Program-made: the position numbers and the translations under genes
The notes under the pieces: generated by a model
Told to the model about the DNA's origin: nothing
Seen by the model: the letters and a program-made list of their open reading frames with translations, nothing else
The model's database searches: none
Shown here: in pieces, positions 2,309 to 62,618 of the stretch
How the letters are laid out: the number at the start of each line of letters is the position of its first letter
Numbering within the stretch: position 1 is the first letter of the stretch
Origin: Balanoglossus misakiensis
Lineage: Eukaryota > Animalia > Hemichordata
DNA length: 64,000 nucleotides
Assembly: GCA_040954595.2 (NCBI GenBank)
Contig: CM082576.2
Span: forward strand, 17,345,028-17,409,027
Direction: 5' to 3'

Positions 2309-2930
2309 TCAGTCTTGCAGAGTTGCTTCCGAAAATTCGCCGTGTAAACCATGTTCTGTCGCCGTGTTGAGAAGTTCTGTGACTGACTGTGCTTCTATAT
2401 CTGTGGGCATAACGTCGTCTTCTTGATCCTCGGTAAATGCAGAACCAAGGCCCTTCATCCAACACTTCTCAATTGACTCTGGCTTGATCTGTCTCCAGGA
2501 CTTCGATATGATGTAACGCATGTCTTTGATGTTGTACGTCTTCAAACTTGAAACTAAGGACGAGTTCTGTGGGTCGAGCAGCAACTGGAGAAGAAGTTCT
2601 CGGCGATAGTTTGCTTTGAAGGACCGGATGATTCCTTGGTCCATCGGCTGTAGCCGGCTTGTTGTGTTTTTTGGTAAGCTAAGAAGGGGGCCTTGATTTT
2701 CCCGTCTCTAGTCTTCAGATATTCTGGACAAGGGTGAGCTGGACATTGGTCGAGTAGTAGCAACGCTTTGGGCTCAAGTCCCCTAGCTGTCATGTGGTAG
2801 CGGACACTTGGAACGAAATGTTCGAAAAACCAGTCTTTGAAAAGAAACTGCATCATCCAAGCATTTGGTGAAGCCTTGTAGACAATGAGTAAGTCGGCCA
2901 TAGTGTGATGAAAGCAGCGTGGTTTCAAAC
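2309..2930 (-). pseudogene. pogo/Tigger DDE_1 transposase fragment, frameshifted
   Basis: Overlapping ORFs carry AWM..FKDWF, ALLLLDQCPAHP and QPMDQGIIRSFKANYRR, the typical Tigger/Jerky catalytic motifs. Frameshift near 2680. Confidence 0.85.
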
Positions 2931-3752
2931 TTCTCCCTATAAGCGAACAACTGCCATGGTCGACTTCACAATAGTCTAACTGACCGGAGGTAATAGGTTA
3001 CCTCATAAACATGCACAAAGGTCGCCACAGGGTGGCGCTTTTGAACGGTGTTTGTTTATCTTTGCGTTCTCACTGACTATTTGCGTCGGAGCGCTGGCCC
3101 AGCACTGGCCCTGACCCTCCACTCATCGCCGTCGCAAATTAACACCGGCGCAGTACTGGTGTAAAGCGTTCTCACTTTTTTTTCCCATCTGAGTCGAATC
3201 TGCACTGGTGTTGCACCGGTGTAAACGTTTCAGTGAGAACGCCCTTATAAACTTTGTGTGTGTGGACACAACACAACTCAAAGGATTAATACTCTGTGTT
3301 TACCATGTAGGCAAATCATACACAGGCTACACAGTGAACGCTCTGAGGTATTTGAATATTCACCATTGATAACGACTCATGATCAAATTTTAATATTTTA
3401 ACAATTCTCATTAATATCATTCGCATGAATAAATACTAATCTCCCTCATATTCGAATTAGATGACACAAGCAATAAATCATCCTTGTTTTAGAGAGAAAA
3501 AAATACTTACTTCAAAATGTCTCGTTTTGTTGTGCCGTCCTGAATTTTCCCAGTTAATGTTGCGTGTGGTTTTTATCAAATGTGACACATCACATGTGAA
3601 ACATACATGTATCAGGCGAGATTTGTCTTATGGATTTTCAGTGCAATGTGTTATATCAGCACCATTCTCATGATGAAGTCTGTAAAACTTCCTATTTGGT
3701 GAGGCTCCATGGGAGACAAATGCCCTGACTTTGAAATCGGCCCATTCCAGCA

Positions 3753-5221
3753 TAGCCCGGAGACCACGGTGTCAATTCTAGAATTCCAACGCCCGGTGAC
3801 CGTCTAGCAATGTCCTGCTGAGCTGAAAGATAGTAGCCCTGGCAACGATCAGGGTCGCTTAGTAACGAATGGATAACTAGTGATCTATCAAATGTTGACG
3901 GGCGCCAGTGGTTGGATGATATAATTAACAAAGCTTGGTTATGAATATTCATACACCTTCAAAACCACTCCCACATCCCCGTCGCGGGAATTTCACACAT
4001 GATAACATAGGATGCTTTGACAGTGTGTTTTTACATTGACCCATTATGGGAATCAGGGTCTGTTTCTTGTTCTACTGGTGGTGATCGCGAAGTTTTGCAG
4101 TTTTTTGATCTGGTGAAATCGTGGTAGAGGCAGTAATTCTAACAACATTTCACCATTAGAAGCCGTATGACTTGGGAAAAAACATTTAACGCTTCTAGAG
4201 ATTTCTAAATAAACTAAATACTAGTCGGGATACTAGTAATATTGTGAGTTATGTTTGTCTGTCTCCTACTTGAGTGAATGTTAGGCTGCATGAGAGATGT
4301 GGAAATATAATTGGTCTGGTTATAAATAAAATTCTCTTTTCTTTTGAAATAAAATTTTACTTTGCTGAAATGGTTACGATATGCGTAGAGAATTACTTTA
4401 CGACATTAGAATATAATCTAACAATAACAGGAAGGGAAGCGCAATCATTAAACAGATCAACTTTACAGTTTGTTACGAACAATGCCGATAACATTTTTTT
4501 GGTAGACTTCACTTCGGATGATGTCGATATATTTGGGTGTCATCCATTGTTCCGGATTACCAAAGACAAGTTCATAATATCCCTCGGCAACACCAGAGTT
4601 ATCATCTCCAAGTCGTGTGGCTCTCAGCCCAATGTTCTCGCAGCTCCGGACTTGGTCCTCGATGAGTGCGTTGAGTGGGCTGATCACCAACACGACCGAT
4701 TTTGAAACGCCTTCCAAATGTCTGGGAAGTCCTTTAATGTTCTTGCGATCTATCGTTGCCGCGATCCTTGCGGCCATTAGGTACACTATTGACTTGTCGA
4801 ACCCTGTTGGGAGAACACAAAATGTGTCTTCCCTGCTTAGAAATGAAAGTAGGGCCACTTCTTGCTCACTCTTTAGAGCTTTGATCGATGGCACAGTTTC
4901 TAAAAACTGCGTAGAAGCAGCACGTACTTCCAGTTTAAACGAGGAATCGCTAGCCATGGCCATGATCAACGCCAATATCGGAGTGAACAATGAATTTGTG
5001 TTATCTAGTTATGTAAATTAACTTTTGAAAACATACTTGGTGACTCCACCTCTATTTCCTTATTTAGAATGCGATGATGTCATTTGGTTTACATTGAGTG
5101 ACCAATTAGCTTACACGCAAGATTTACCACCCGTGTCGTTCTACGCACAGAATTCTGTGTGTAAATAGAGACTGTCACCGGGCGTCTCCTTTCTAGAATC
5201 GACACCCTGGACTCCGGGCTA
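3753..5221 (-). mobile_element. AcademH-like DNA transposon, internally deleted, carrying a RecQ-like SF2 helicase remnant
   Basis: TIRs tagcccggagacca.. / ..ggactccgggcta with TAG..CTA ends. Perfect 9-bp TSD attccagca at 3744-3752 and 5222-5230. Internal ORF 4463-4990 is RecQ-like. Confidence 0.85.
4463..4990 (-). pseudogene. RecQ-like DEAD/H helicase N-terminal fragment (transposon-borne)
   Basis: LKSEQ (Q motif), DTFCVLPTGFDKS (degenerate Walker A), VLVISPLNALIEDQV (motif Ia), LVFGNPE. Truncated just before motif II. Confidence 0.8.
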
Positions 5222-9013: not shown

Positions 9014-9739
9014 GGGAGTGGTCCAGTTATTTAACGCAGTGAAAAAACAACAAACAACACTGGAAACTAAACTCAAAGATGCAGGTCCATCAGAGAGAAA
9101 AAAAGCTAAAGTAATGGTATCTCTCACAAAGGGTGACTTTGTAGACTTATTGAAGGGAGCTCCAGCTGATGTTCTCAAGAAATCAAAGCCAGACAGTTTT
9201 GGACACAGAAGTAAATCAATGGAAGCTGTAAGTACACAATGAAAGATAATTATCGGAATATAAAAGTAACAAAGTACAGTGTTGGATCTTGCAACGTCAA
9301 GAAAGACACTTTTAGAATCAATCAAATTCCTTAAAGGAACAAAGTCTCTCTCGCTGCCAATTTTTCACGCTTTTTGTTTGTTACAAGACACCGTTTTACG
9401 TTATTCTACATGTGAATATACCGGTATACTAATTCAATGTTCGACAACACACAACTTCCTTCCCGTTTGTAGGATATGAGAGTAAAAATCTCGTCAAAAT
9501 GAACAAACTATTCATTTTGGCAAGTTTTTCATTCTTGTGTCTACAAGTGGGATGGAAGTAATGTTATTCTACTGGTGATTTCTAACTTTGGTCTTGACTC
9601 AACTCTTCTTATGTTACAGACTAGTCAATCATCAGAAGAGAGAGAGAAGGGTGCGGCTTGGAATGTTTTACAGGAAGACTTTATGATGAGTGCCAAGATG
9701 AAGAATTGGGATCGAGAGAGTAACAGTGATGAAGATTGA
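9014..9739 (+). CDS. RRP15: RRP15-like ribosomal RNA processing protein, last two coding exons (9014-9227, 9620-9739); 5' exons not found in the window
   Basis: (R)GVVQLFNAVKKQQ..LKDAGPSERKKAK..KGDFVDLLKG spliced via gtaagt..ttacag to ..AWNVLQEDFMMSAKMKNWDRESNSDED*. Matches the conserved RRP15 C-terminus. AATAAA at 10243 and 10365. Confidence 0.93.
9331..9560. mobile_element. Truncated copy of the ~355-bp palindromic TTAA MITE (family A)
   Basis: ttaa-aggaacaaagtctctctcgctgcc.. left arm and centre are present; most of the right arm is lost. Confidence 0.75.
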
Positions 9740-12906: not shown

Positions 12907-12912
12907 TTTATT
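12907..12912 (-). terminator. Polyadenylation signal of the BRICHOS gene
   Basis: AATAAA on the minus strand ~130 nt after the TAG at 13041-13043. Confidence 0.6.
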
Positions 12913-13040: not shown

Positions 13041-13162
13041 CTAACCAAACGAGATGCACACTTTTACTTTAACCCTAACTCTAATGTTAGAGCAGCCCCC
13101 GAGTCCACATGTCCATTTCCATTCAAACTTCCATTCAAACCCCCATGAAAGACAAAATCTCA
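13041..13162 (-). CDS. BRICHOS gene terminal exon encoding the putative mature beta-hairpin peptide
   Basis: Strong acceptor ttttctctttctctctttcag. Phase 1 matches the GAT G|gtgcgt donor at 13782. Open to the TAG at 13041. Confidence 0.78.
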
Positions 13163-15395
13163 CTGAAAGAGAGAAAGAGAAAACATTGGTTACAATATTT
13201 TAGGTTATCACATAGTATATACCATCATCAACAGTTGGGTTTTAAAGAAATTCATGGAGGCTGTCTGTACTGACCCCTCCCGGAGGTGGGGAGCAATATC
13301 AGTGTCGTCCTACATAGTGCTGCAAAACTACATTTAGGTTTTAAAGGCAATAGATCGTCTCACGCGCATGCGTATAGCCAGCAAATGTTCAGCAAATTTT
13401 CCGTTCGATGCATTCAAATAGTGGACTGCCTTCGCTTCCTTCCATATTTCATGTGCACCGTATAAGTAGATTATGGTGTTGTCCCTCCTTTTCACCCAAG
13501 CTGGTGTCTTTTCACGATCTCCGACACAGGTTATGGTCGCCGCCATCTTGTCTGTTGTTAGGACAGAGCACTGCCTTATGGGATTGACTGTTCACTAAAC
13601 GTCTGTAACCAGCGGCTACAGTTGGAACATGCGTGTGAGACGAGCCAGGCGCTTTTATTGCCAAAAAAACTTCCAGAAATTACTTGTCCATACAAGTTCT
13701 TTTGCGTAATTTACCCATCTTTCCTCGGACTTGAGGATCATGACCCTTTGTATCAAGAAATACAGTCAAAATGTTTACGCACCATCCCTTGACAGACCAG
13801 CTATTCCTTTCTGCAAATCGCATGGAGCTCCATCACATGTCGTTTCCTCTTCAGTGGTGACAGTCCAGTACGTTGTCTTGTCTGCGCAATGCTTGGCAAT
13901 CACGGTAGACACAGATGCTACATCTTCAATGGGGTCTCCCTCAATTGCCGTCTTCTGCATGTCAACAATGTCGATGTCATCTTGCGCTTTCACCTGCGAC
14001 CAAAATGAACATTTCCGTATGTATATGTAGTCATATCTAGCAGCGACTACAGATAACTGTACACGGTGGGATGACAATGGCGCTTGAAATATTTTATATG
14101 GATCTTAAAGGTCCATTATCTTTAACTGTTTATTTTTATTGTCAACCATAGTTTCTTCTGGGGCAGGGTTAAAGGCGCAGTGCTTATATTTTCAACATAG
14201 CCCCTGTGTGCACAACAAACATGATTGTTACAATAATTGTCCGGACTCAAAAATACCAATGATCGGTACACATACACACGACTTGTTCTCAAGCAGAATC
14301 ATCGGTGTGTTAGGATAATAAAGGGAACAGGACAAGAAAATGTAGCCTGCACAGAAGTTACAGATAATGGCCCTTTAAACTTTAGATATTATTACGAATT
14401 CGCTAAATGTAGAACATACCCCTTGTGATTCCAGGTCCTCTTTAAGATCCACTGGACTGACTTCTGTGTTAGCATCGTATGTAGACAGGTAACAAATGGA
14501 CTTTTGCTCATCGACAAAAGCGTCCAATTTCTGTTGACAAAAAGAGCAGATTGAAAGTTTTCCTTGGTCAGTACAATATTTTGTTGGAACCGACGACCAC
14601 GGTAATACTAAAAATATAAATTTAAATAAACTTTTCGGCAAAACAGATTGATGTGTAGATAATTTGTCTGATGAACATTGTCTAACTGCGAAGAGACGTT
14701 TCTCACTGTCTATTTGATTCACATTCCCCCATATATGTTGTGGGAGTGAAATGGTTGCGCTAAATAAACTAAGCTCTGGTTGCTTTCGAGTTTATCACGC
14801 ACATGTACTGACCTTATTGACATCGCGTACAGTGTACGCTGCATCCAGTCCAACATTTGGCTCAGACCCATCTTCTGCCACCGAGAAACCGGTCTTATAG
14901 ATCTCTTCTCCCTTTTGCACGTTGACTTCGACCAATCCGTCATAGATCTCGTCACCATGCTTGATCTTGACAGAGTATTTCTGCGGGATACAACAAGATG
15001 GTTCTTTCATCGGTTTTCCGTCCATTCGACAACGTGCATGGTATGAATTTTCAATAGTCGTTGTTCAAAGCGTCGCACACAAATGACAGAAACCACGAAA
15101 TGGTTGGGCCCCATGAGAACTTGAGAGACTGGGAAAAACATCTGAACGGCATCTACTTTTATGTGGTATTTTTTACTACAAAGCCCATCGTGACTAGCAA
15201 TTGACGAATGAGAACACAGTCTGCGGATGACTTGGGTTACAATGTGAAATGAACCTTTAATGTAGTACTGATTCAACCATTTATCGTTTGACCAATGTAC
15301 CTCTGGTTATTAAGAACAAGAACTTTCGTAGACTATACCTGGGCATGGCCGAGTGAGGCAAGCGACAGCAATACCAAAATGAGTCGAAAATCCAT
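13041..15395 (-). CDS. Secreted BRICHOS-domain precursor (222 aa) with a C-terminal Cys-bridged beta-hairpin peptide
   Basis: Five exons with canonical GT-AG sites and matching phases: 15395-15339, 14980-14813, 14530-14420, 13993-13783, 13162-13041 (669 nt). Signal peptide MDFRLILVLLSLASLGHAQ; BRICHOS-like pattern (TVRDVNKKL..SICYL..SPVDL..DPIEDVASVSTVIAKHCADKTTYW); tail RDVR|FCLSWGFEWKFEWKWTCGLGGCSNIRVRVKVKVCISFG*. Confidence 0.82.
13341..13657. mobile_element. TTAA-flanked non-autonomous element, family B (Kolobok-like), with mini-ORF remnant
   Basis: Homologous to 47576-47910 and 61939-62273. TIR core tcgtctcacgcgcatg / catgcgtgtgagacga. Confidence 0.7.
14105..14378. mobile_element. TTAA-flanked MITE (Kolobok-like) in a BRICHOS gene intron
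   Basis: ttaa|aggtccattatctttaact ... agttacagataatggccct|ttaa. Confidence 0.7.
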
Positions 15396-15953
15396 ACTGA
15401 TGAGAAGCCTCGAGCAAAATCGGAATCTGGAAATATGAAAAACAAATCGTAAAATGTGGGACATGTCTTTAGCCATTGTGGCGCTTATTTTTTGGTTTGA
15501 TTCTAAAAGAATATTTGATTTTCACTGGAATTCGTTTTCGCTGAAAACACTAGAAACATTTTTGAATATGGCTGAGAATTTATTTTCACTATTTCTTGTC
15601 AAAGAATAAGAAATAAGAATTTTTACTGGGATTTTATTTTAGCGGAAAAAATGAGTCCAGCGAAAAAAAGTGAAAATAAAGTCCTAGTGAAATTTAAGTA
15701 ATCTACGTAACAGTATATACGGTCACGTGTCAGACGAGAGCGTTTTCCAAATCTTAGCACAATTTAACCCCAGACTATACCGCACGCGTCCTACTAATCG
15801 ATTTCAAAGCGACGGCGTTGGCAAATTTTGCAGAGGTCTGAAACCTGTGACTCATACTTGTAAATATGGAGGCATATACAATTTGGAAGAACCTACGACA
15901 GCGTGAACACTGTAAGTAATAAGGGAGCCATGCATAGACGCGTTGCCACTTAC

Positions 15954-16040
15954 CTCGATGTCTGTGTATTCAGTTCCGGCACACCGAACGATTTGCGGGA
16001 GAATGGTGCTGAAACGTTACGAATGTACCAGTTATATACT
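15954..16040 (-). promoter_or_regulatory. Putative TATA box and non-coding first exon of the BRICHOS gene
   Basis: Minus-strand TATATAA at 16038-16032, then a ~55-nt exon ending gag|gtaagt (15953). Acceptor ttttcatatttccag at ~15427, 31 nt before the ATG. Confidence 0.5.
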
Positions 16041-16385
16041 TTTTTGCGATGCCCAAAAGCGACTCAAATTGCTAGCTGAAAGTGGACATTTCATCAAAAT
16101 TTATTATTGGCTTATGGTGTTCACCCCCGATGGGGTCCGCCTTTCCCATAGCAGGCGATATTGATAAACGTCCATGTTACATACTTCGTAGGGTTGAATT
16201 ATGTGAAATATATTTGCATTTCGCCCTACTGCTACGAAAAACAATCTTTGGGGCTATAAGCAAATGTTACGGGGTAAGTTATGTATTTGCAAGTCAATAG
16301 CTTATTCGTCCGGAAAATAAAAAAGAAATGTTCCTACGCTTTCCTTAAGTTAACAGACGAACAGCTTTTATATTGGAAAGACCAT

Positions 16386-16740
16386 TTAAAGGGACAAAGT
16401 CTCTCTCCAGCTGCCCCTTTTCCATTAATTATGTTTGATACAAGACACCATTTATGTTAATGTAAATGTGGATATATAGTGAATCAATGATCAACCACAC
16501 AAAACTTCCATCCCACTTGTATGATATGAGAGTAAAAACTCACTCAAAATGAATAAATGGTAAAGAACGATTATTCATTTTGGCGATTTTTTTCACTCTC
16601 CTGTCTATAAGAGGGATGGAAGTTGCGTGTGGTTGAATGTTCATTCACTATATATCCACATGTAGAATAACAAACGGTGTCTTGTATCAAATATAATTAA
16701 TGGAAAAAAGGGCAGCGAGAGAGAGACTTTGTCCCTTTAA
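16386..16740. mobile_element. Palindromic ~355-bp MITE, family A (TTAA target, AG..CT ends, Kolobok-like)
   Basis: ttaa|agggacaaagtctctct..agagactttgtccct|ttaa. The whole element is a near-perfect inverted repeat. Confidence 0.9.
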
Positions 16741-18962
16741 TTGAAAACTTTTACAACAACCAGCCTGATCGAAGACGTATGGTAGCAGTTTACTGCAAGT
16801 ACTTTAGCTCGGGGTTTTGCCTGGTATTGTGTGTTGACACCAAAACCATCTCACCAAATATTGAGATATTTTAATTTAAGCAGTTTAGGAGCAAAATTGG
16901 AATTCGGAAGGCGAATCGGCAGGGAAATGAAAGTCTGATATCCCCACGCAGAAAAAAAGTCCCCGGGCGCCCGAACAGAATCGCGTTCAATTATGCACGA
17001 AGGACCTGTAGCTCTGGTTTTCAGACAAAGACTGTTCAGATCAAATGCCATGAGGCTGATGAGGCACCATACCTGATACATATTACGTGTCTGGCGGTTC
17101 TAAAGTAAAAACATACTCGGAAAACCTTTACCTGGATGTCGAAATATTGCTTGCCCGTCATCTGAAAATGACAACGCCGTGGGTCACATGGCCAGATCAC
17201 GTTATTGATAGTATAGAATTGCTTCCGTGACGATTGATTTATGAAAGCTCGTGTATTGCTCAGCCTGGAACCGTTAGTTTTCGTTGCACATTTTGAGCAC
17301 ACCCACGCTAAATAGCCACACGTCATTCTAACACACACGGTGTCTTGTGTTGAGGTTAACATTTGCCTGAATTATGAAAGAAAATCCATCAATAGTGAAT
17401 CCACATTTCAATGTTCACTCATCCGCTCGGTAAATTTAATCGTATATCACAAAAAAGGAGGAAAAGCACAGGATACTGATAGGGGTCGATGGAACAGTTT
17501 TTGACAATGGTAGTTAGATTCTCTTGGATATTTTATGCCGACAATATATGCACAGGTTTCGGATTGAATTTTTTATCGAAAAATTGAAACGACCATTGGT
17601 ATTTGACGATATAGGAAGTTCACAAAAAAGAACATTCAATTGATATCTAGGTCTTTGGTGTGACAAAATAATATGACCAGAGCCTCTCTCGCTCGCGATT
17701 AAAAATGTATTGTCACGACCTCCACCATATGGGGCTGAGCCAATATACACACACCTTGTTAAGTCAATGTTCCCGACCAGGAATTCACAATTTGGTTGAG
17801 TTTATTACATATTCACGAATCGTAGACGAAAATGTGCATTTCAGGAAAGAGAATACTTCAAACATGGTCTCACCCAACCTCATTTCTTTACACCAACGAA
17901 GATACTTTGTATATCGTTTTGATATAGGATTAGGACCATGAAACTGAAATTTCTTGGCCCAACAGCGCCCTCAACCTTATTGTTCACAATCATGCAAAAA
18001 TCATGCGTGATTGATGACGTATTTATAACGATAATGATATGCATGATTAATTATCCCATAATCCTGTGTCTAGTGAGCTGATGCGACTGGTTACCATCCC
18101 GCCATTCTCAGGATGAGATGTGTCTCTATGATATTGACGGGCATCGAAATCTCGCTGTGCTGACGTCATCATTCTAGCAATTCTGTAGAATACATGAAAA
18201 CATGTATATAGAGCCTGTGTGTATGCATGCATGCATGATGTGTGTATCTATATTGCAGTTCGCCTGCAGTAGGCCTAATGTTTTAATGGACACAGACAGT
18301 TTGCAGACTCATTACAATATTCTCAGTCACATATTTTCACTTCGTTATGTAGTAGAGGCAAATCATCCACATCATGCATGTGAGTTACTCTTGAAATTAC
18401 ATGGAAAATGTGTGTTGGTACAATATCCATTTAAATAGTGACTTACTTCATTGCTTTGCACTTTATTGATGTTGATGAATGAATTCAAGCACGGACTAGG
18501 ATTCAGATTAAGACCCCAAATGAAAAGGTTCAAATATGGCCTCATTTAGTCAAACCGAAGTTTGTGAGAGAATGATTTTAAAATGGTTATAATATTTTCA
18601 CCCAGCGCCCTCGCTGTCGCACTCTGGCACGGGACTTCTAAACTGAAATTCACACAAGAAAAAAATCATCCTAATAAAGGTCATCGCAAATGCTGAAACA
18701 AACATGGCGTAGAGTGTGTGCCCATGGATTGAGAGTACTGAGTGTGAACATCTTGGATGCATGCTCTCGAACGATTCGATTCTGGAACGACAATTTGAAA
18801 GCAGGTGTTTTTTTGCGTTGTTAGTCTTTTATTATTGTAAAGTGGTCAAACACATTAAATCAATAGCTTGGACGATCTCCGGGTTACACGTCATATGAGT
18901 GCTTACGCGAGTTCCGAGGCCAAGCGATCACATAAAGAATAGGCCCAAAGGTTAATATCTTA

Positions 18963-19769: not shown

Positions 19770-20040
19770 TTAATAAAACCAATTTGGTGTAGAATTACGT
19801 GAGTACGAAACTTCTATGTTGCCCAAAAACCAGCTGTAACACCAATAAGTTTATCAAGTGATGGTTATTGGGGAAACTATTTTGCAAAAAATCGGCCGAA
19901 ATTTGAACAAAAAAGTGACGTGGTCGAAGTAGAAAATAAATTTATATATATGCCGAAAGGAATAGACAGTCGTCGATTACATGTTAATCTCTGGGATTAA
20001 CGCGACACAGATGGACAGTGGATGAACCACCATCCATCTT

Positions 20041-20119
20041 AGCTGTACCGTTGGGGGGGGGGGGGGCTGATTACCCCCACGGACATCAGCCGCCCCCCCC
20101 CCCCCCCATCGGTACAGCT
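20041..20119. repeat. Short G/C-run hairpin (mini inverted repeat)
   Basis: agctgtaccg(t)tg-polyG..ctgat / atcag..polyC-atcggtacagct. Confidence 0.65.
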
Positions 20120-21111
20120 GCGTACCACAGCTACATCCATCTGGGTATCGCATTCGATGATCCCGGAGATTTACATGTAATCCATTACTGCCTATTCCTA
20201 TGGTTATATATTATAATTTATTTTCTATCTTTTCTTTTTCTTTTTAAGGAAGTTCGTCATATTTGCTTCAGCATGGTGGTCCGAACAAGTCGATATGAGT
20301 GACGAACAGTGGAGTTGATTCTCGTCTCCAGGCTGGTGTCCATGGACCAACCCTTCCATTGGTGATGGGCCTAGGCCTATATGTCACACTTGTCAACCAT
20401 TCTTAAAACTGGCAGTCGCCCCGGCATTTTTGGCCCACGTCCCGCCTCACACGAGTCACAGTGCTAAAAGCGAGACACACATTCTTAACATCAAATTCAT
20501 TACTTTTAACGAGCTCCAACTTCCAAGCACGTTCGTCATGGACACAGCGTCAATGTCATATAGAACACAGAACGCGATGGGTCCCATGGGTCCCTCTCTG
20601 CATGCTCTGCTGCCCGCAAGGAAGCTTGATGATGGGCAGGAAGCTATGGCGTCAGAATCTTGGTTCCGCCACATCATGCATATATATACGTCAACGTCAG
20701 CCGCACCACCCTTTCGTGGCCCGTTTCCGTGAAGTATATACAGGTTTCGACGTCCGCCTTCTGCCAAGAAACCATATATAGCGAAATGATATTTTTAAAA
20801 GTCGACTGGTGTCATCCCCTCTGTAATTTAAGTTATGCTTTCTTGGCGCACTCCATTATCTGAGTGGGAAGTACGTAGTGGCACGAAGAGGGACGAACGT
20901 GAAAAAGTTCCATCACACTGCATGGACAGCTTGTAGATCAGAAATATCGAAATAGTTATACTTAAGATGATTCACGCATAAAAAGGAAATATTTACACTT
21001 TATAGTCAACGGTAGCTATTTTGTAGAAGCAACACTGTTTGTAACCTCAGACACTTACACGACAACGTAAACTTGTCCCCTTGCCGATTTCTGAGTAGTC
21101 ATACCCTAATT

Positions 21112-21119: not shown

Positions 21120-21347
21120 GACAGTTTAACTCCCACTTTGTACGTACACTGGTTGAGTCGTAAGGGGAGTGTTCCTTTTGACAGAATATGTCATGTACAT
21201 CATTCTGGACCATATATAAACACTGGAAGACGGCACAGTTTGTACATAGCTCAGGTCGTATGTATTTTGCTGGGATAGCGGAATCGACGATTGTAGCAAG
21301 ATTTCTCTAAAGTCTAACTCCACACATCACTACAGCTACACCAAAAG

Positions 21348-21702
21348 ATGGCTTCTCATCTCAAAACTGTAACAGGAATGTTACTTCTTCTTTCGCTGTC
21401 TCTACACGTCAGTAACACCAATGCTTCGGAGTGCAATGTCGATTTTGACCAGTATCGGACCAAACGCATCAACGCCATACGAGGACAAATTCTGAGCAAA
21501 CTCGGGCTGGACAAACCACCAGAAGGCGAAGTTCCAGCCACCGTCCCAGACGATGTCATGGCCCTGTACAACCACACAGTAGCTCTGCTCAAACAACAGC
21601 AAAGAGATCAAAAAGATGAATGTAGAAAGAACGAAGACGAAGACGATTATTATGCCACCGAAGTGACGAGGTGTGAGTCCGTGGAAGACTGGCCCCTTGA
21701 AG
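21348..21702 (+). CDS. TGFB: TGF-beta exon 1 (signal peptide, latency lasso)
   Basis: ATG at 21348; donor GAA G|gtaatt. Confidence 0.93.
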
Positions 21703-24700
21703 GTAATTCATACTTCGTAGTACTGAACATGTAGGTCTTTTTAGATAAGCTTATCTTCCAACATTGAGTAACGTAACTTAGAATAGATTGTTAGATTTAG
21801 ATACGGTTATACCACTAAACTGTGTGTCGATTCAGAAACGTGCTGCGAAATACATAGACTCATACAACTGTGTGCAAAGACATTTCAACATTAGGCCTTA
21901 TATATGCAATGGGCAAAATGGCTACAGAATCTGTTGTGCCCAGCCTGCTACATAAACTTTTTGATGCTTTATAGGGGTAGGGTACTGCTGACAATTGTAT
22001 ATTTGCTGCCTCCGATGCGGCCTCCCAACTCGCCACTCCTGCCATGGTCGGCGGTCGGCACAGACATATTACCGGATACTCTCACCATACATTACTACTT
22101 CTAATACTATTTAGGGCCTAGCGCTTGAGGTCACGCATCGCGTTTAAGGTTAGGCCGAGACTCAAAAAGTTATATTTGTTAAAAAGTATAAAACAAAGTC
22201 ACCACGAAGGATTCGAGTTTCTCCTCCTGTAAGGATGTGTTGCTGAGATAAACTTCTGTTTTTATTGGGTCATTAGTTTCAAACGTAGTACAAGGGTAGG
22301 ATAGAAAGTGAAGTGGAGAATGAAAAACGGACTGTTGACTACCGAACACTAAGAAATGACCAGAAAAATCCCATAGTTCACCATGCGCAGCACTGAATCC
22401 CACATTTGACTCTGCAAAACCTAGTTTACCTACAAAATGGCATAAAATGGCCACATGGGGGCGCTATAGCCAAAAACTTATCGCTCTCTGTAACTACTTT
22501 TCATTTGAAAAAAAAATTGATGAGACATTTTTGCTGAACATTTTCAACTGAAATTAAATGTAGTAATACCGAGCGCAATAATTTTTTGGTCAACAACGTC
22601 CTCAAGTGGCCATGTGATGCCATTTTGGTGGTCAACTGTGTGTTTCCCCAGAGTCAAATGTGGGATCCAGTGGGGAACTCTGGGATTTCTCTGGTCAACT
22701 TTTAGTCTCTAGCTGGTGGTCAACAGGCTGTTCCCATTCCTCATTTCACTTTCTATCCTAGTCAATTAGTATATTGGGGTTGATTGCAGACGCATGCATA
22801 CAGAGACATCTACTGCATACATACAACGATGCATGGTTGGGGATGGGAACCAGTGGTAACAGATCACACATCATTGTTTTTGTAAACTTACGCATAGAGA
22901 GGGGTCTGATGCTGCCCAAGCATCATTAAAAATAATCAGTGACGATATCAAAGAATAAATATTTTTTTGTCAGAGGTGCCCCAAACCAGCAAAATGGCAA
23001 TCACGCATTCATGTGACCTCGGGTACACTTCTGATGTTGGCATACTGTAGCATATTAAGAACCTGCGCATGCGTACTGGCCAGCAAGCCAATACACGACC
23101 TCTTTGGGAATATAGGTTGGAGAGAACTGTAAAACAGGGTTCTTACATCTCACAGAACCTGGTCATTCCAGTCTACCTCGCACTGTATAATTCCAGTGAC
23201 AAATGGCCTTAGCCTTTAGTAAAATGGTAAAAATTCCAAGGAAAGCATAAACAGTAGGAAAAGAGATACAGCTGTGGTTCAAGTTTGACATTTTCAACCT
23301 TGATAGATTAGAGGCCACAAAATGCTGTTAATTTACTGAGCAATAACGAAGTGTGGACACAAACCAAATTTTTTTGTCCCAGGGAGGATATTTCGGACCA
23401 GAGTCTAGTTTATAATTTATACAGGATAATAACAAAAGTTTTGGATTTCACTGCGAAATATAAGTGGCCAGAAATGTGTGTATATGTTTTCTCAAAGCAA
23501 TATGACCCCAGACAACATTTGATCTGCATTGAAGTAATAACAGCAGGGGTCAGAGGATTTTATGGCGGAATTTTAACCCCTAGTTGTGTGAAACATACTG
23601 AAAGAGAAATCACAGTTTGTATGATGCTTTTCTGTTGGAACCAACTGTGTATTTGATGTCACAGTTTAACTATTTAGTGGTGAGCTCAGATGTTTTTCCA
23701 CGGCAAATATCTATTATCATGTATAATCCAATAGAATGTAAATTTGGCATTTTTTCAAGAATGTTTTGCTCTGCAGTGAGGCTGTGAAAAGGAAATGTGA
23801 CATTGAACTGGTCTGTGGTGTAAAAGATTAAAGGTTCTCATATAATAGTATTTCATCTGGATAGAGTGAAGCCCTGTTCCTCACAGTTACTGCCAGAAGC
23901 AGGATTAATGAAGTGTGAAAGATTTGATATTGGAGCATTAAAGCCTCTAGAGCTGCCACTTTTTGCATTATTTTCATGATTTTATTTTCTAACTTAGATT
24001 GGTACATTGAAATAAGCTTACTGATAGGTATACATGAACATCTTATCGACACCAGATTGTGACTACTTGTTGCAATTTGATCACGCTATGTATTAAATAG
24101 GTGCCGCACCCATTTAATAAGCCTCTATACAAACAGGATGCAGCTGTCATGGTTTTTGTCGCCAAGAGATTACAAACTGATTGCAAATACGAGTAATATG
24201 GCTTAATGGTGAGGATTTTAGAGGATAGGAAATATATTTGAAGTTTTTTATTGTGGAAAAATATGTGATATTTGGCAGCTCCAGAGGCTTTGAGATATGT
24301 AGTGGGATAAAGTTTGGAAAGGCAAAATAAAATCAACTGAGCTTATAGGCTTTGGGGTGTACATACCAATCTGACACATGAGTTATCAAACCCTAGGGGT
24401 GCCTTTGGTATGACTTTCTAGACAGTAACAAAACTCAACTTCGATAACCCAAGAATGATTTTATGTGCTGTTGATTTGGGTGTGGCAAGACACCTCAAAC
24501 ATGTGACAAAACAGGTGTATTCAGGATTTAGATTTTTTGTGTCAAAAGTACATTTTTCTTAGATATTCAGTGGAATCTGATTGTGTAAAGTACACAGCGA
24601 TTATTTATACTTTAAAGTCCCAATATGAGATGCATTTTCATGGACATTGGAAAATTAATTGAACAAATGATTGAAATACAATGAAGGATTAATTACCCAT

Positions 24701-27700
24701 TTTGCTGCTGAAGGGGATGAATGGAATTTGCACTATCTTATCATTTATATACCTGGCTGGCGATCATCTACAGTGGCTTTAAGATGTCATCACAGCAAAT
24801 GCTGAAATGGTGTTTGCATTTGTTAGTATTGAGATCTGTCTCTTTTTATTTGGAAATAGTTAGAAGTTGGGTAATAATACATCTCGCTTAATTCCTCTCA
24901 CACTGAAAATGGCTGTGAAAGGGTTCTTTTGGCATACGACATATGAAGTGTCTGACAATCAGAAGGGTTGGACATAACTTGTCGTGGATTGATCGTAATT
25001 ATAACATTTTTTTGTTCTTCCCAACAGCTGATCCCTATGCCCAACCCAAACAAGATGCTGGCTACAGTGTTTTTATCAAGTTTGACCTAGAACCACTAGA
25101 CAACATTGACATGAGCGCAGTAACACAGGCTGAAATCCGCATGTATCAAATACCCAATGTGTCTCCCACAACCACAGAACAGAGAATAGAGTTGCATCAG
25201 ATACTTGGGCCACGGCGAGGAGACATCACCCCAGAACGCAAATATCTCCATAGTATGGTGCTTAATCCAATGCATGGTGGGTGGCTGTCATTTGATGTCT
25301 CAACTTTGGTCAAAGAGTGGATGATAAACCCAGGTAAGATGACACAATGGCTCATTTGCTTGTGGAATATACCGGTAATAATAATACAGTAAAACCAGTC
25401 TAAACCGAGTCCTGTCTAATCTGGAAACCTGTCTATAGCGAACACATTTTCCAGTCCCTTTCAAATAGAACCACATGTTAAAGGAAGTTTATAAACCAGA
25501 CATCTCTGCAAACCGAACAATTTCTTCAGTCCCTTTGGTGTTCAGTTTAGACAGGTTTTATTGTACATTTATTCAGTACCGTACTATTGGCCACCGGCCA
25601 TACTGTACGCAACAAAAAGATATCAAAGTTTACAGTCACCACAGTCTGCTGATGAAATAGGAATGCTACTTTATACAGCACAGTTTTATTCAATTCAAAC
25701 CCAGACCTACTGCACCAATTCACATTCATGTATATACTCTCTCAATCTCATCTGTACTGGTCACGTACGCCGTATTTGCCGCTGACCAGTTTATAGCTCA
25801 CCCAGTCACCAGAAAGTGATCAGTTCTTGTCACTCGAAAATAGAACCTGTGTATAACAGTTGGTGGATAATATCTGATCAGCCGTTCTTGAGATATCAAT
25901 CATGCTAATACACACACTCGTGCACACAGACAGACACACACACACGCACAAAAGAGGTAACAACAATAAACAGGAATGTTTGTTGGCATCAATCACCATT
26001 TTTTATAACCTATTATTTTCAACACCTAAAGTTGTTATGACAGGCAAAGTATCCATTGTGTAATGATAATCTAATTTATATTTGATGTCTTTCAAATGTT
26101 TTTAGATTAAAAAAATCTACAGAACCTTGGGGTACACTGCAGTATAAAAGATGATCTAAAATGGGTCTGAGAATTGAGCCAGGTTCACTGCAGTCCCCAA
26201 CACAGACTATGTTCGAACAAGCTAATAAGACATTAAAGTGAACCCGTCATTACGCCACACTTGCGCACTGAGTCTGTCGATAATTGATTGATTTTACCCA
26301 CGTTGCCAACGAGTCCCACACAACGACAGCACCAATCAACGGACTCAGTGCGCAAATGCGACGCAACGACAGGTTCACTTTAACCATTCCAACATTTCAC
26401 ACTAACCTGTGTTTTCTTCAGAAAAAGCTGACTGTGACATTTCTATTGTAGCATCCAATGAAGGAGTGGAGTTGACTGTCCACTGTCCAGGATTTGAATT
26501 TGATGTCGATACAAAGGACCTAGTCCATGGCCACGTAGATCCACTTCAGATAATTATAGCCGGTATGTATTCACACATCCTATCATTGAGTAATTTACAG
26601 AAAGTGCAATTTCAAACCCTATATAATCAAGGCCTGAAGGGGCAAATGTCATAACTGTATGTGCCTGTTTTTGTGTGCTCAGTCCGTCTGTCACTGTCTG
26701 TCTGTCTTTCTGTCTTAGCATCCCTTTGTGTTGAACCCTTTCACCACAATGGTTCAGTTCAAACCCATTTGTTTTCAATGATAAAGTTGGACCTCTAAAG
26801 AGGGAACTGGTGGTGAACTAGGGTAAAGGCAACACAATTTTTGAATGATTATTTGGAATTGAGTGATTTCTTAGAAGACATTGCTTTCTTTATTCAGGGG
26901 AAATGTTTTAAAGTATTGCATAATGTTGTAAAAAAGTTATATGGGAAATTCCAATTTCACAAACTTTCACTGATGTAAAGCAGAACCCACAAATATTATA
27001 ATTACACAAAAACTGGAAGTGACACAGAAAACTTGTCTTCAGCTGCAGCTGCAATTACAGTCATGCTTATGTGTTCTGTAACATCGAGATGACACATAAC
27101 TGGGTAGTGGGCTAGTCTTAGGCCAGCAATCCCCATCTATGACCAGGATGGCCAAGAAATGACCAAAAATGGCAGAGAAATGTGTGCTTAGAGCAGAACA
27201 GCATATTGGCTGCAGCAAAAGCCGTTAAAGTCTCTCCCAGTTCCATCGTATGTTACTCTCTATTCAAATGTAATAACATTATGAGGGAATCTGTAATATT
27301 CTACTTTGGGGGTATTATTACCATTTTTGGTCAAAAATCACAGAATCTGCTTGTCCAATTTCTTTGAAAATTAGAATGCAAGTCCCTGTTGTTATTTTGT
27401 TGTAAACATTTCGGACCATTTTGACGGGTTTTATAAAGAAAATTCATAGTTGGTATCTTCTCAGACTTCTAGGTAATACGATTTCCAGTCATAACAAATG
27501 ATTTATTACTCTCCAGTGACGAAGTGTTATTGGCATACCGGTATCATATAATATAAGAAAATGCTTGCTGTTACAAACAAGAATTTATACTGTGCTCATT
27601 TCATACAGGAATTGAAAAAGAGAAGAACACAGCCACAACACCCAAACCCAAAGAGGAAGATGGTAGTTATCGACCAGGAAGAGGAGACGTACCCCCAGAG

Positions 27701-28135
27701 GAAAGTCTTGAAGGCAAAAAGGCTCATCTCTTGGTTTCTTCCAAGACGGCCCGAACGACAGCTATAGAAAATGACTACCGGCGCAGAAAACGCAGCTTGG
27801 ATGCCAGTTTTTGCTTTTCACGGCCATCACAAACAAACTGCTGCCTCAGACAACTGTACATTGACTTTCAGCAAGATCTTGGCTGGAACTGGATTCACGC
27901 ACCCAAGGGTTACCATGCCAACTACTGCGGCGGTTCATGTCCCTATTTGTGGAGCGAAGATACACAACACACCAATGTTCTCAGTTTGTACAAAACTCTC
28001 AACCCTGATGCATCACCAGCACCTTGCTGCGTACCTAAAGATCTGGAAGCTCTCACCATTCTGTACTATGAGTCGAGAAGGCCAAAGATTTCCCAACTAA
28101 CAAACATGGTTTTGGCAACTTGCAAGTGCAGTTAA
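21348..28135 (+). CDS. TGFB: Transforming growth factor beta (sensu stricto; co-ortholog of TGFB1/2/3) preproprotein, 432 aa
   Basis: Exons 21348-21702, 25028-25333, 26452-26562, 27609-28135 (all phase-1 GT-AG introns, 1299 nt). Signal peptide; [16 protein letters not shown] latency helix; GWLSFDVS; RGD; RRRKR furin site; 113-aa 9-Cys mature domain [41 protein letters not shown]. Confidence 0.97.
22297..22760. mobile_element. Long-TIR MITE in TGF-beta intron 1; partial relatives at ~36905-37041 and ~53255-53330
   Basis: taggatagaaagtgaagtgg.. / ..catttcactttctatccta with degenerate inverted arms of ~150 bp. Confidence 0.7.
25028..25333 (+). CDS. TGFB: TGF-beta exon 2 (prodomain arm)
   Basis: ttcttcccaacag| .. 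[30 protein letters not shown] |gtaaga. Confidence 0.93.
25387..25563. mobile_element. Tigger/mariner-type MITE, TA target
   Basis: ta|cagtaaaaccagtctaaac ... gtttagacaggttttattg|ta. Confidence 0.7.
26233..26383. mobile_element. 150-bp palindromic TTAA MITE in TGF-beta intron 2
   Basis: ttaa|agtgaacccgtc..ttgcgcactgagtc / gactcagtgcgcaa..gacaggttcact|ttaa. Confidence 0.8.
26452..26562 (+). CDS. TGFB: TGF-beta exon 3 (bowtie region, VHCP)
   Basis: tttctattgtag| [20 protein letters not shown]|gtatgt. Confidence 0.88.
27609..28135 (+). CDS. TGFB: TGF-beta exon 4 (RGD, furin site, entire mature domain)
   Basis: tttcatacag|; RGD at 27680-27688; RRRKR at 27779-27793; TAA at 28133-28135. Confidence 0.96.

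Positions 28136-32675: not shown

Positions 32676-62618
<29,943 letters not shown>

Follow-up and report, generated by a model that had tools for sequence, protein, structure and literature searches.

Polychaete worms carry antimicrobial peptides (AMPs) at the C-terminal end of BRICHOS-domain precursors, and arenicin, alvinellacin, capitellacin, abarenicin, HfBRI-25, and nicomicin (PMC10745061, PMC5431198, PMC6265681) make up the group with which we compared the gene described here. Such precursors are laid out as a signal, an acidic pro-region, and a cationic tail (PMC6265681). For Heteromastus, 13 BRICHOS-borne peptides of 18 to 91 residues have been described, distributed over nine families and carried by secreted as well as membrane-anchored precursors, and two of them were shown to kill bacteria (PMC10745061). 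Natural β-hairpin AMPs as a class have been reviewed as 27 families of 11 to 25 residues with charges of +1 to +8, in which Arg is preferred over Lys, Glu, Asp, and Gln are scarce, the sheets are rich in Val, Trp, and Ile, and amidation occurs often; the five phyla that this 2026 review lists as sources include neither hemichordates nor echinoderms, and none of the peptides it covers exceeds 25 residues (PMC13001179). Here, we analyzed a 64,000-nucleotide stretch of the acorn worm Balanoglossus misakiensis (assembly GCA_040954595.2, contig CM082576.2, positions 17,345,028 to 17,409,027; hereafter the window), in which an earlier annotation made from the sequence alone (the original prediction) had proposed a gene for a secreted BRICHOS precursor ending in a cationic, Trp-rich β-hairpin.

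The predicted precursor resembles those of polychaetes in joining a signal or anchor, an acidic BRICHOS pro-region, a basic site, and a cationic, Cys-stapled tail encoded by the last exon, and also in belonging to a multigene family with varied tails. However, the polychaete β-hairpins have 20 to 25 residues, whereas a single, fully two-faced hairpin of 38 to 41 residues is predicted here, in another phylum. The longer HfBRI peptides (38, 54, 75, and 91 residues) have helix-plus-hairpin, hairpin-plus-coil, or unresolved structures (PMC10745061), and polychaete cleavage sites are mostly dibasic, unlike the R-D-V-R of the window protein. Human ITM2B/Bri2 is similar in its BRICHOS profile match (8RNU) and in its acidic domain and basic tail (PMC2751770), and Bri2 and OAF also have a C-terminal hairpin client with nested Cys (PMC9714404). 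In contrast to the window protein, Bri2 is anchored as a type II membrane protein and its client has 23 residues, and the OAF client is a conserved unit of 70 residues and four disulfides; the literature examined ascribes an antimicrobial function to neither. A further likeness, by analogy only and without homology, is with MAX1, a designed gelator that forms double-layered cross-β fibrils and antibacterial gels and in which Val alternates with Lys/Arg on a hairpin with one hydrophobic and one cationic face (PMC12940918). MAX1 is synthetic, with 20 residues, a D-Pro turn, and no disulfides, whereas the window tail has double that length, a first strand that is aromatic and zwitterionic, and a charge density that is far lower.

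The five minus-strand coding exons (Table 1), running from 15395 down to 13041, sum to 669 nt, corresponding to 222 codons and one stop, and all four introns (4/4) are GT-AG, with phases 0, 0, 0, and 1 and no breaks in the reading frame, as had been predicted. A protein of the acorn worm Ptychodera flava, XP_070547619.1 (227 aa; referred to as P0122), aligned with the model from end to end at 49.5% identity; in tblastn it matched coding exons 2 to 5 in order (4/5), and all five were aligned globally. A tblastn search of the 64-kb window with the model found no second copy. At the level of sequence, the exon chain can thus be regarded as confirmed, with its junctions resting on homology. The upstream TATA box and downstream AATAAA of the original prediction were also present as motifs, although the non-coding first exon remains putative.

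The last intron offers 12 donor/acceptor pairs, four of them in frame, and one in-frame alternative (13778/13158) would delete R-D-V-R. The modeled pair (13783/13162) has an acceptor tract with 18/18 pyrimidines, agrees with the homologues, and yields the motif R-x-V-[K/R]-x-C, which is also found in P0122 and in another P. flava relative, P0135. Splicing to 13162 was favored mainly because the P0122 tail singles out the last exon: of the window's 2,909 six-frame segments, this exon scored 109 and the next best 44. The local score between the P0122 tail and the window tail was 113, a value that 0/5,000 shuffles reached.

The N-terminus of the precursor is hydrophobic and signal-peptide-like (Kyte-Doolittle means of 1.6 to 2.9 for the first eight 11-residue spans), and the protein contains eight Cys (88, 148, 165, 170, 186, 201, 206, and 218). 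The Pfam profile PF04089 has a cut-off of 25 bits, and the scan with it took in single window exons and six P. flava proteins. Exon 4 alone stayed below the cut-off (16.9 bits, E = 0.0073), and the other three exons tried, each alone, gave no BRICHOS match. P0122 scored 27.9 bits and P0128 25.0, with P0123, P0125, and P0127 at 12.8 to 23.6 and P0124 without a match. In the window protein, D72, C88, and C148 are spaced by 16 and 60, compared to 16 and 59 in ITM2A (PMC2751770). When a profile of the family was searched against PDB, human Bri2 BRICHOS (8RNU) was the sole match under E = 0.2 (E = 3.7e-4), and the alignment covers the conserved Asp and both Cys. In the Atlas, the nearest clusters to P0122 were unnamed, cnidarian-rich BRICHOS clusters (0.92), followed by a BRICHOS/OAF cluster (0.91), and the Atlas model matched a BRICHOS cluster at a template modeling (TM) score of 0.61.

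Sequence searches of PDB with exon 4 and with the tail returned nothing under E = 0.4, word-seeded searches gave 13 candidates for exon 4, none of which scored, and nothing for the tail, and an Atlas search with exon 4 found no match. The full-length AlphaFold2 model of P0122 was of low confidence (pLDDT [predicted local distance difference test] 46.6); its best Foldseek match was Bri2 BRICHOS (E = 0.01), and VIA-align gave Bri2 BRICHOS Z 5.4 (root mean square deviation 3.6, 78 aligned), proSP-C Z 4.9, and the tied LolA Z 5.0. Together, these lines of sequence and profile evidence make the BRICHOS assignment secure, and the proposed BRICHOS precursor was borne out by the P0122 score, the Bri2 profile match, and the adjoining Atlas clusters. 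Of the acidic domain with two Cys, C88 and C148 were found as described, but the pair C165/C170 had been overlooked. This C-x4-C pair lies in the linker after the BRICHOS domain (residues 165-170; 13810-13840, minus strand) and is common to 5/8 P. flava proteins, being missing from P0127, P0128, and P0135.

Recounting the tail after R-D-V-R gave the values reported originally, i.e., 38 residues, 4 Cys, 4 Trp, a net side-chain charge of +4, and a terminal Gly. The calculated mass of this 38-mer, reduced and in acid form, is about 4.46 kDa. When the 39-residue exon product was modeled alone, AlphaFold2 predicted one hairpin (pLDDT 85.6), in line with the proposed fold, with two 14-residue strands (2-15 and 25-38) and a nine-residue loop that contains the inner Cys pair. 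Hydrophobic and polar residues alternate strictly along both strands, in runs of 16 and 15 residues, a pattern that the original prediction, with its alternating RVRVKVKV strand, had captured only in part. The 180-degree hydrophobic moment of the tail is 0.76, which none of 100,000 shuffles reached, and only 11/18,370 six-frame 38-mers of the window came to 90% of it, all overlapping the last exon. With Cys, Gly, and Pro held fixed, 0/200,000 shuffles reproduced the alternation on both strands, for the window tail and for P0122 each, while among TGF-β precursors (a redundant set), 23/47,234 16-mers reached 0.8. If the outer Cys are paired, Trp/Phe face Val/Ile across the strands and Glu faces Arg or Asn; the two Cys pairs are three residues out of register, and the loop would therefore have to bulge. 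Strands of 14 residues have a span of about 45 angstroms, which would suffice for crossing a bilayer in a tilted position. When the tail model was used in fold searches, the matches were weak and limited to long hairpins, including stems of pore-forming proteins (Foldseek E ≥ 0.38; Z ≤ 2.9); they were not used because any long hairpin would give them, and a four-copy complex prediction of the tail gave no answer (score 0.02, mark 0.32) and was counted neither way.

P0122 shares with the window protein the Asp/Cys spacing, the linker Cys pair, and the tail Cys pattern (x14, x3-4, x11), as well as the four Trp, the alternation, and the aromatic-plus-Gly end of the tail; none of the six structural Cys in domain and tail is lost between the two. 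It differs in having an R-G-V-K site, a tail of net +7, a Gln-rich polar face, and a loop one residue shorter. On the first strand, 8/10 positions of the hydrophobic (aromatic) face are identical, versus 1/10 on the polar face, where charges are swapped; on the second strand the corresponding values are 3/8 and 3/9.

The putative convertase site, proposed as R-X-X-R, is present as R-D-V-R in the window protein but reads R-G-V-K in P0122 and R-N-V-K in P0135, and the cut may therefore follow the invariant first Arg (Arg181), giving 41 residues. Such a 41-mer would end flush, with four residues beyond the outer Cys at each end, and would hold a conserved Val in the hydrophobic register. It contains 3 Arg, 4 Lys, and 3 acidic residues, its P0122 counterpart 5 Arg, 3 Lys, 1 acidic residue, and 3 Gln. 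The released peptide could thus possibly have 38 residues (cut after Arg184) or 41 (cut after Arg181). The terminal Gly, suggested earlier as an amidation signal, is retained in P0122 and would fit amidation.

An exhaustive search with exon 4 only (70 residues) at E up to 0.001 returned seven proteins, six of which were P. flava "uncharacterized proteins." The seventh (P0126), a repetitive metagenome protein of 961 residues without a BRICHOS match, was dropped as unrelated. A cluster look-up added two P. flava members, giving eight in all (P0122 and XP_070548773.1, XP_070551040.1, XP_070550136.1, XP_070557285.1, XP_070557354.1, XP_070558565.1, and XP_070558455.1). No Saccoglossus, echinoderm, or amphioxus match was obtained, which with a 70-residue query does not imply absence. 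Identity of the eight proteins to the window protein was 37 to 59% in the pro-domain and 0 to 37% in the tail. Six of the eight end in Cys-containing cationic tails, and the five measured carry +5 to +12 in differing shapes: counted from the conserved Arg, P0122 has +7 and P0135 +5, and across the Cys-bounded stretch, P0129 has +8, P0123 +12, and P0125 +10. P0127 is a P0135 variant with one Cys fewer, and P0124 and P0128 have no Cys tail. The P0135 tail has the same C-x14-C start and no alternation (moments 0.04 and 0.09). A 50.6-Mb contig contains four members, of which one is partial and three begin with a signal-like segment; the other four map to a 47.3-Mb contig and have a longer N-terminus containing a membrane-anchor-like segment. 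This pattern of a conserved carrier with variable cargo is also that of Heteromastus.

The trees took in window and P. flava proteins only, because the exon 4 search returned no polychaete sequence. Their support for grouping the window protein with P0122 was 68/45, leaving orthology unsettled, and in the pro-domain P0135 is slightly closer to the window protein than P0122 (59 versus 55%); it is therefore the tail and the Cys pair of the linker, not the trees, that pair the window protein with P0122. The tails of P0129, P0123, and P0125 lie behind membrane-anchored BRICHOS domains and have Cys spacings of x7-x10/11-x7, with a strong helical moment in P0125; judged by sequence, these three are good AMP candidates in their own right.

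Our favored reading, to which we give roughly an even chance, is that the cationic amphipathic tail is cut off after secretion and acts as a membrane-damaging host-defence peptide. By comparison with the family, the BRICHOS domain would hold the aggregation-prone hairpin during secretion (PMC9714404, PMC10182729), a convertase would cut after Arg181 or Arg184, nested disulfides (C186-C218 and C201-C206) would staple the hairpin, and the last Gly would supply the amide. The anatomy of the tail suggests that the Lys/Arg face could bind anionic bacterial membranes and the Trp/Phe/Val face enter the lipid, and that bilayer-long hairpins might line up next to one another to form pores or a carpet; arenicin-1 is described as dimerizing and working via pores (PMC8953592). 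In support, the layout matches that of the polychaete BRICHOS-AMP precursors, with an acidic pro-region of −19 and a cationic tail of +4, and β-AMPs are known for a preference for Val, Trp, and Ile and for frequent amidation (PMC13001179). The net charge, +4 in a class range of +1 to +8, and the Cys pairs, whose members stand three or more residues apart, are within the bounds of the β-hairpin class. Also in favor of this reading are the conserved carrier with its varied cationic cargo, the single hairpin predicted by AlphaFold2, and an alternation that shuffled sequences do not reach in either species.

Several observations weigh against this reading. A length of 38 to 41 residues falls outside the 11 to 25 of the reviewed class, and the composition is atypical, with 4 Lys, 2 to 3 Arg, and 2 Glu, and with 3 Gln in the counterpart. 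Originally proposed as a longer hairpin of the polychaete kind, the tail has the predicted shape but leaves the known class in length and composition. The furin-type site is not conserved in the two P. flava relatives, and the full-length P0122 model leaves the tail unfolded. ITM2 proteins share the acidic domain and basic tail and are not known as antimicrobials in the family account of PMC2751770. Finally, the conserved aromatic face together with free charge swaps suggests a specific packing surface over charge-driven killing. Possible but doubtful in our view is a bolder proposal, in which acorn worms have undergone a radiation of BRICHOS-carried effectors and this self-assembling, two-faced hairpin, disulfide-stapled and of bilayer length, is a minimal β-barrel pore built from a 40-residue peptide or a natural equivalent of MAX1-type antibacterial gels, with BRICHOS as the pre-secretion safety catch.

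The packing surface bears on two other readings. We consider it somewhat unlikely that the tail belongs to the ordinary BRICHOS clients and has a non-killing, non-gelling role, such as that of a ligand or mucosal factor like gastrokines, Bri2, and OAF, the tail perhaps remaining docked to the domain, or the domain acting in its own right as the working extracellular chaperone. The conserved aromatic face could dock in the groove of its own domain, the convertase site is not a perfect one, the Atlas clusters nearest to P0122 are unnamed BRICHOS and BRICHOS/OAF, and most BRICHOS proteins are described as having no known physiological function (PMC10182729). However, the tails here diverge faster than the pro-domain, differ wholly among paralogues, and are cationic in all five measured, whereas the non-AMP families ITM2, BRICD5, TNMD, and LECT1 keep well-conserved tails; this contrast is softened by the gastrokine-1 and group A tails, which are not well conserved (PMC2751770). 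It appears unlikely that the hairpin, once released, forms a functional amyloid or a gel, stacking into double-layer cross-β fibrils with buried hydrophobic faces, assembling on meeting seawater salt, and stiffening mucus or a burrow lining, any antibacterial action coming from the cationic mesh. The strict alternation over 16 and 15 residues is kept at 37% tail identity, and the Trp/Phe ladder suits a packing surface. The first strand also resembles designed FKFE repeat peptides, which we take to point the same way. Moreover, the Val/Lys/Arg strand repeats the MAX1 pattern (PMC12940918), and a tendency to aggregate is the rule among BRICHOS clients (PMC9714404). Against this, MAX1 variants of net +5 are reported to precipitate and not to gel (PMC12940918), the closest paralogue tail (P0135) has no alternation, the other paralogue tails resemble cationic defence peptides, and the literature examined contained no instance of a natural BRICHOS client that makes a functional gel.

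We consider it very unlikely that the locus is not expressed in the modeled form, whether by stopping at the in-frame TAA at 13775-13777, by using the junction that drops R-D-V-R, or as a silent gene. The four in-frame junction pairs and the 2/8 P. flava models that end without a Cys tail (P0124 and P0128) would allow for it, yet the RefSeq protein P0122 contains the same last exon, the frame is unbroken, the six structural Cys are kept, and the last acceptor is fully pyrimidine-rich. P0129, which falls in the same 90% cluster as P0124, has a tail, so that the short models are probably annotation gaps.

BRICHOS precursors with hairpin clients and, in polychaetes, BRICHOS-borne peptides of 18 to 91 residues were already known (PMC10745061). 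What appears to be new is the occurrence in hemichordates, with an unnoticed acorn-worm family of varied cationic tails, and, as modeled, one hairpin, some 40 residues long, that alternates in two-faced fashion throughout and is almost twice as long as the peptides already known to have such a shape. Literature searches combining BRICHOS with hemichordate or Ptychodera found nothing, most subscription journals lying outside the search, and BRICHOS does not figure in the main text of the published P. flava genome (PMC11175523). Searches combining BRICHOS with amphioxus or Branchiostoma gave, by title, only BRICHOS/AMP reviews and one unrelated paper. Chen 2022 describes a BRICHOS "AMP" phylogenetic group, meaning domains that cluster with polychaete AMP precursors, and the supplementary tree of that study may include hemichordate domains (PMC9627735). 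If active, the peptide would widen both the phylum range and the size limit of natural β-hairpin AMPs, and BRICHOS would be a general carrier of defence peptides in deuterostomes, as proposed for polychaetes (PMC6265681). The P. flava relatives offer four further candidate cationic tails, and the two natural tails, whose differences are almost confined to one face of strand one, provide a ready test of which features of its own client a BRICHOS domain recognizes.

Table 1. Features of the BRICHOS gene and its surroundings, in window positions (identities are to P0122)
Feature	Position	Strand	Remarks
TATA-like box, candidate promoter	16032..16038	-	Motif scan
Putative non-coding first exon	15954..16005	-	5' end approximate; GTAAGT donor starts at 15953
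Coding exon 1	15339..15426	-	Acceptor 15426, short 5' untranslated region, ATG 15395, 19-residue signal-peptide-like segment; 9/19 identical (47%)
Coding exon 2	14813..14980	-	N-terminal strands of BRICHOS sheet and conserved Asp72, which aligns with Bri2; 34/56 identical (61%)
Coding exon 3	14420..14530	-	Cys88 and first helix; 24/37 identical (65%)
Coding exon 4	13783..13993	-	Second helix, Cys148, last strand, linker Cys pair 165/170, acidic linker, Arg181; 29/70 identical (41%)
Coding exon 5	13041..13162	-	Arg184, hairpin peptide, stop codon; 15/40 identical (38%)
38-residue amphipathic hairpin	13044..13157	-	Cys spacing x14, x4, x11; terminal Gly
AATAAA, candidate polyadenylation signal	12907..12912	-	129 nt past stop
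Dispersed repeat in last intron, outside coding model	13382..13591	.	Self-blastn; copies ~47570-47870, ~61940-62220
MITE-like element	16383..16743		360 bp, self-complementary; copies near 41475, 43580, 45230, 50930, 54500, partial at 9330 (self-blastn)
Transposase and helicase pieces	2312..5008	-	DDE_1 in two frames, DEAD-box fragment
G+C-rich hairpin	20039..20121		Several sub-threshold Rfam microRNA matches
TGF-β gene	21318..28135	+	Propeptide and mature-domain Pfam matches
Tubulin-tyrosine-ligase-like exons	~37500..56830	-	PF03133; TTLL6 nearest in PDB

Among the surrounding features, the element resembling a miniature inverted-repeat transposable element (MITE) lies about 345 bp upstream of the TATA-like box, and the transposase pieces and helicase fragment are probably transposon relics. 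The G+C-rich hairpin is found about 1.2 kb before the first TGF-β open reading frame; an Rfam scan of the window gave only sub-threshold microRNA matches, on palindromes. The TGF-β gene is 6 kb from the BRICHOS gene and divergent to it. Its mature domain showed 86% identity to P. flava (TGF-β2 closest) and 77% to Saccoglossus kowalevskii, compared to at most 70% for the other 118 listed proteins, which most likely places the window among the acorn worms and is in keeping with the deuterostome host that had been thought probable. P0122 is on the 50.6-Mb contig and P. flava TGF-β2 on a 41.9-Mb contig, and the gene neighborhood therefore differs between the two species. The tubulin-tyrosine-ligase-like exons stand tail to tail with the TGF-β gene, an arrangement that presumably recalls the vertebrate TTLL5-TGFB3 neighborhood.

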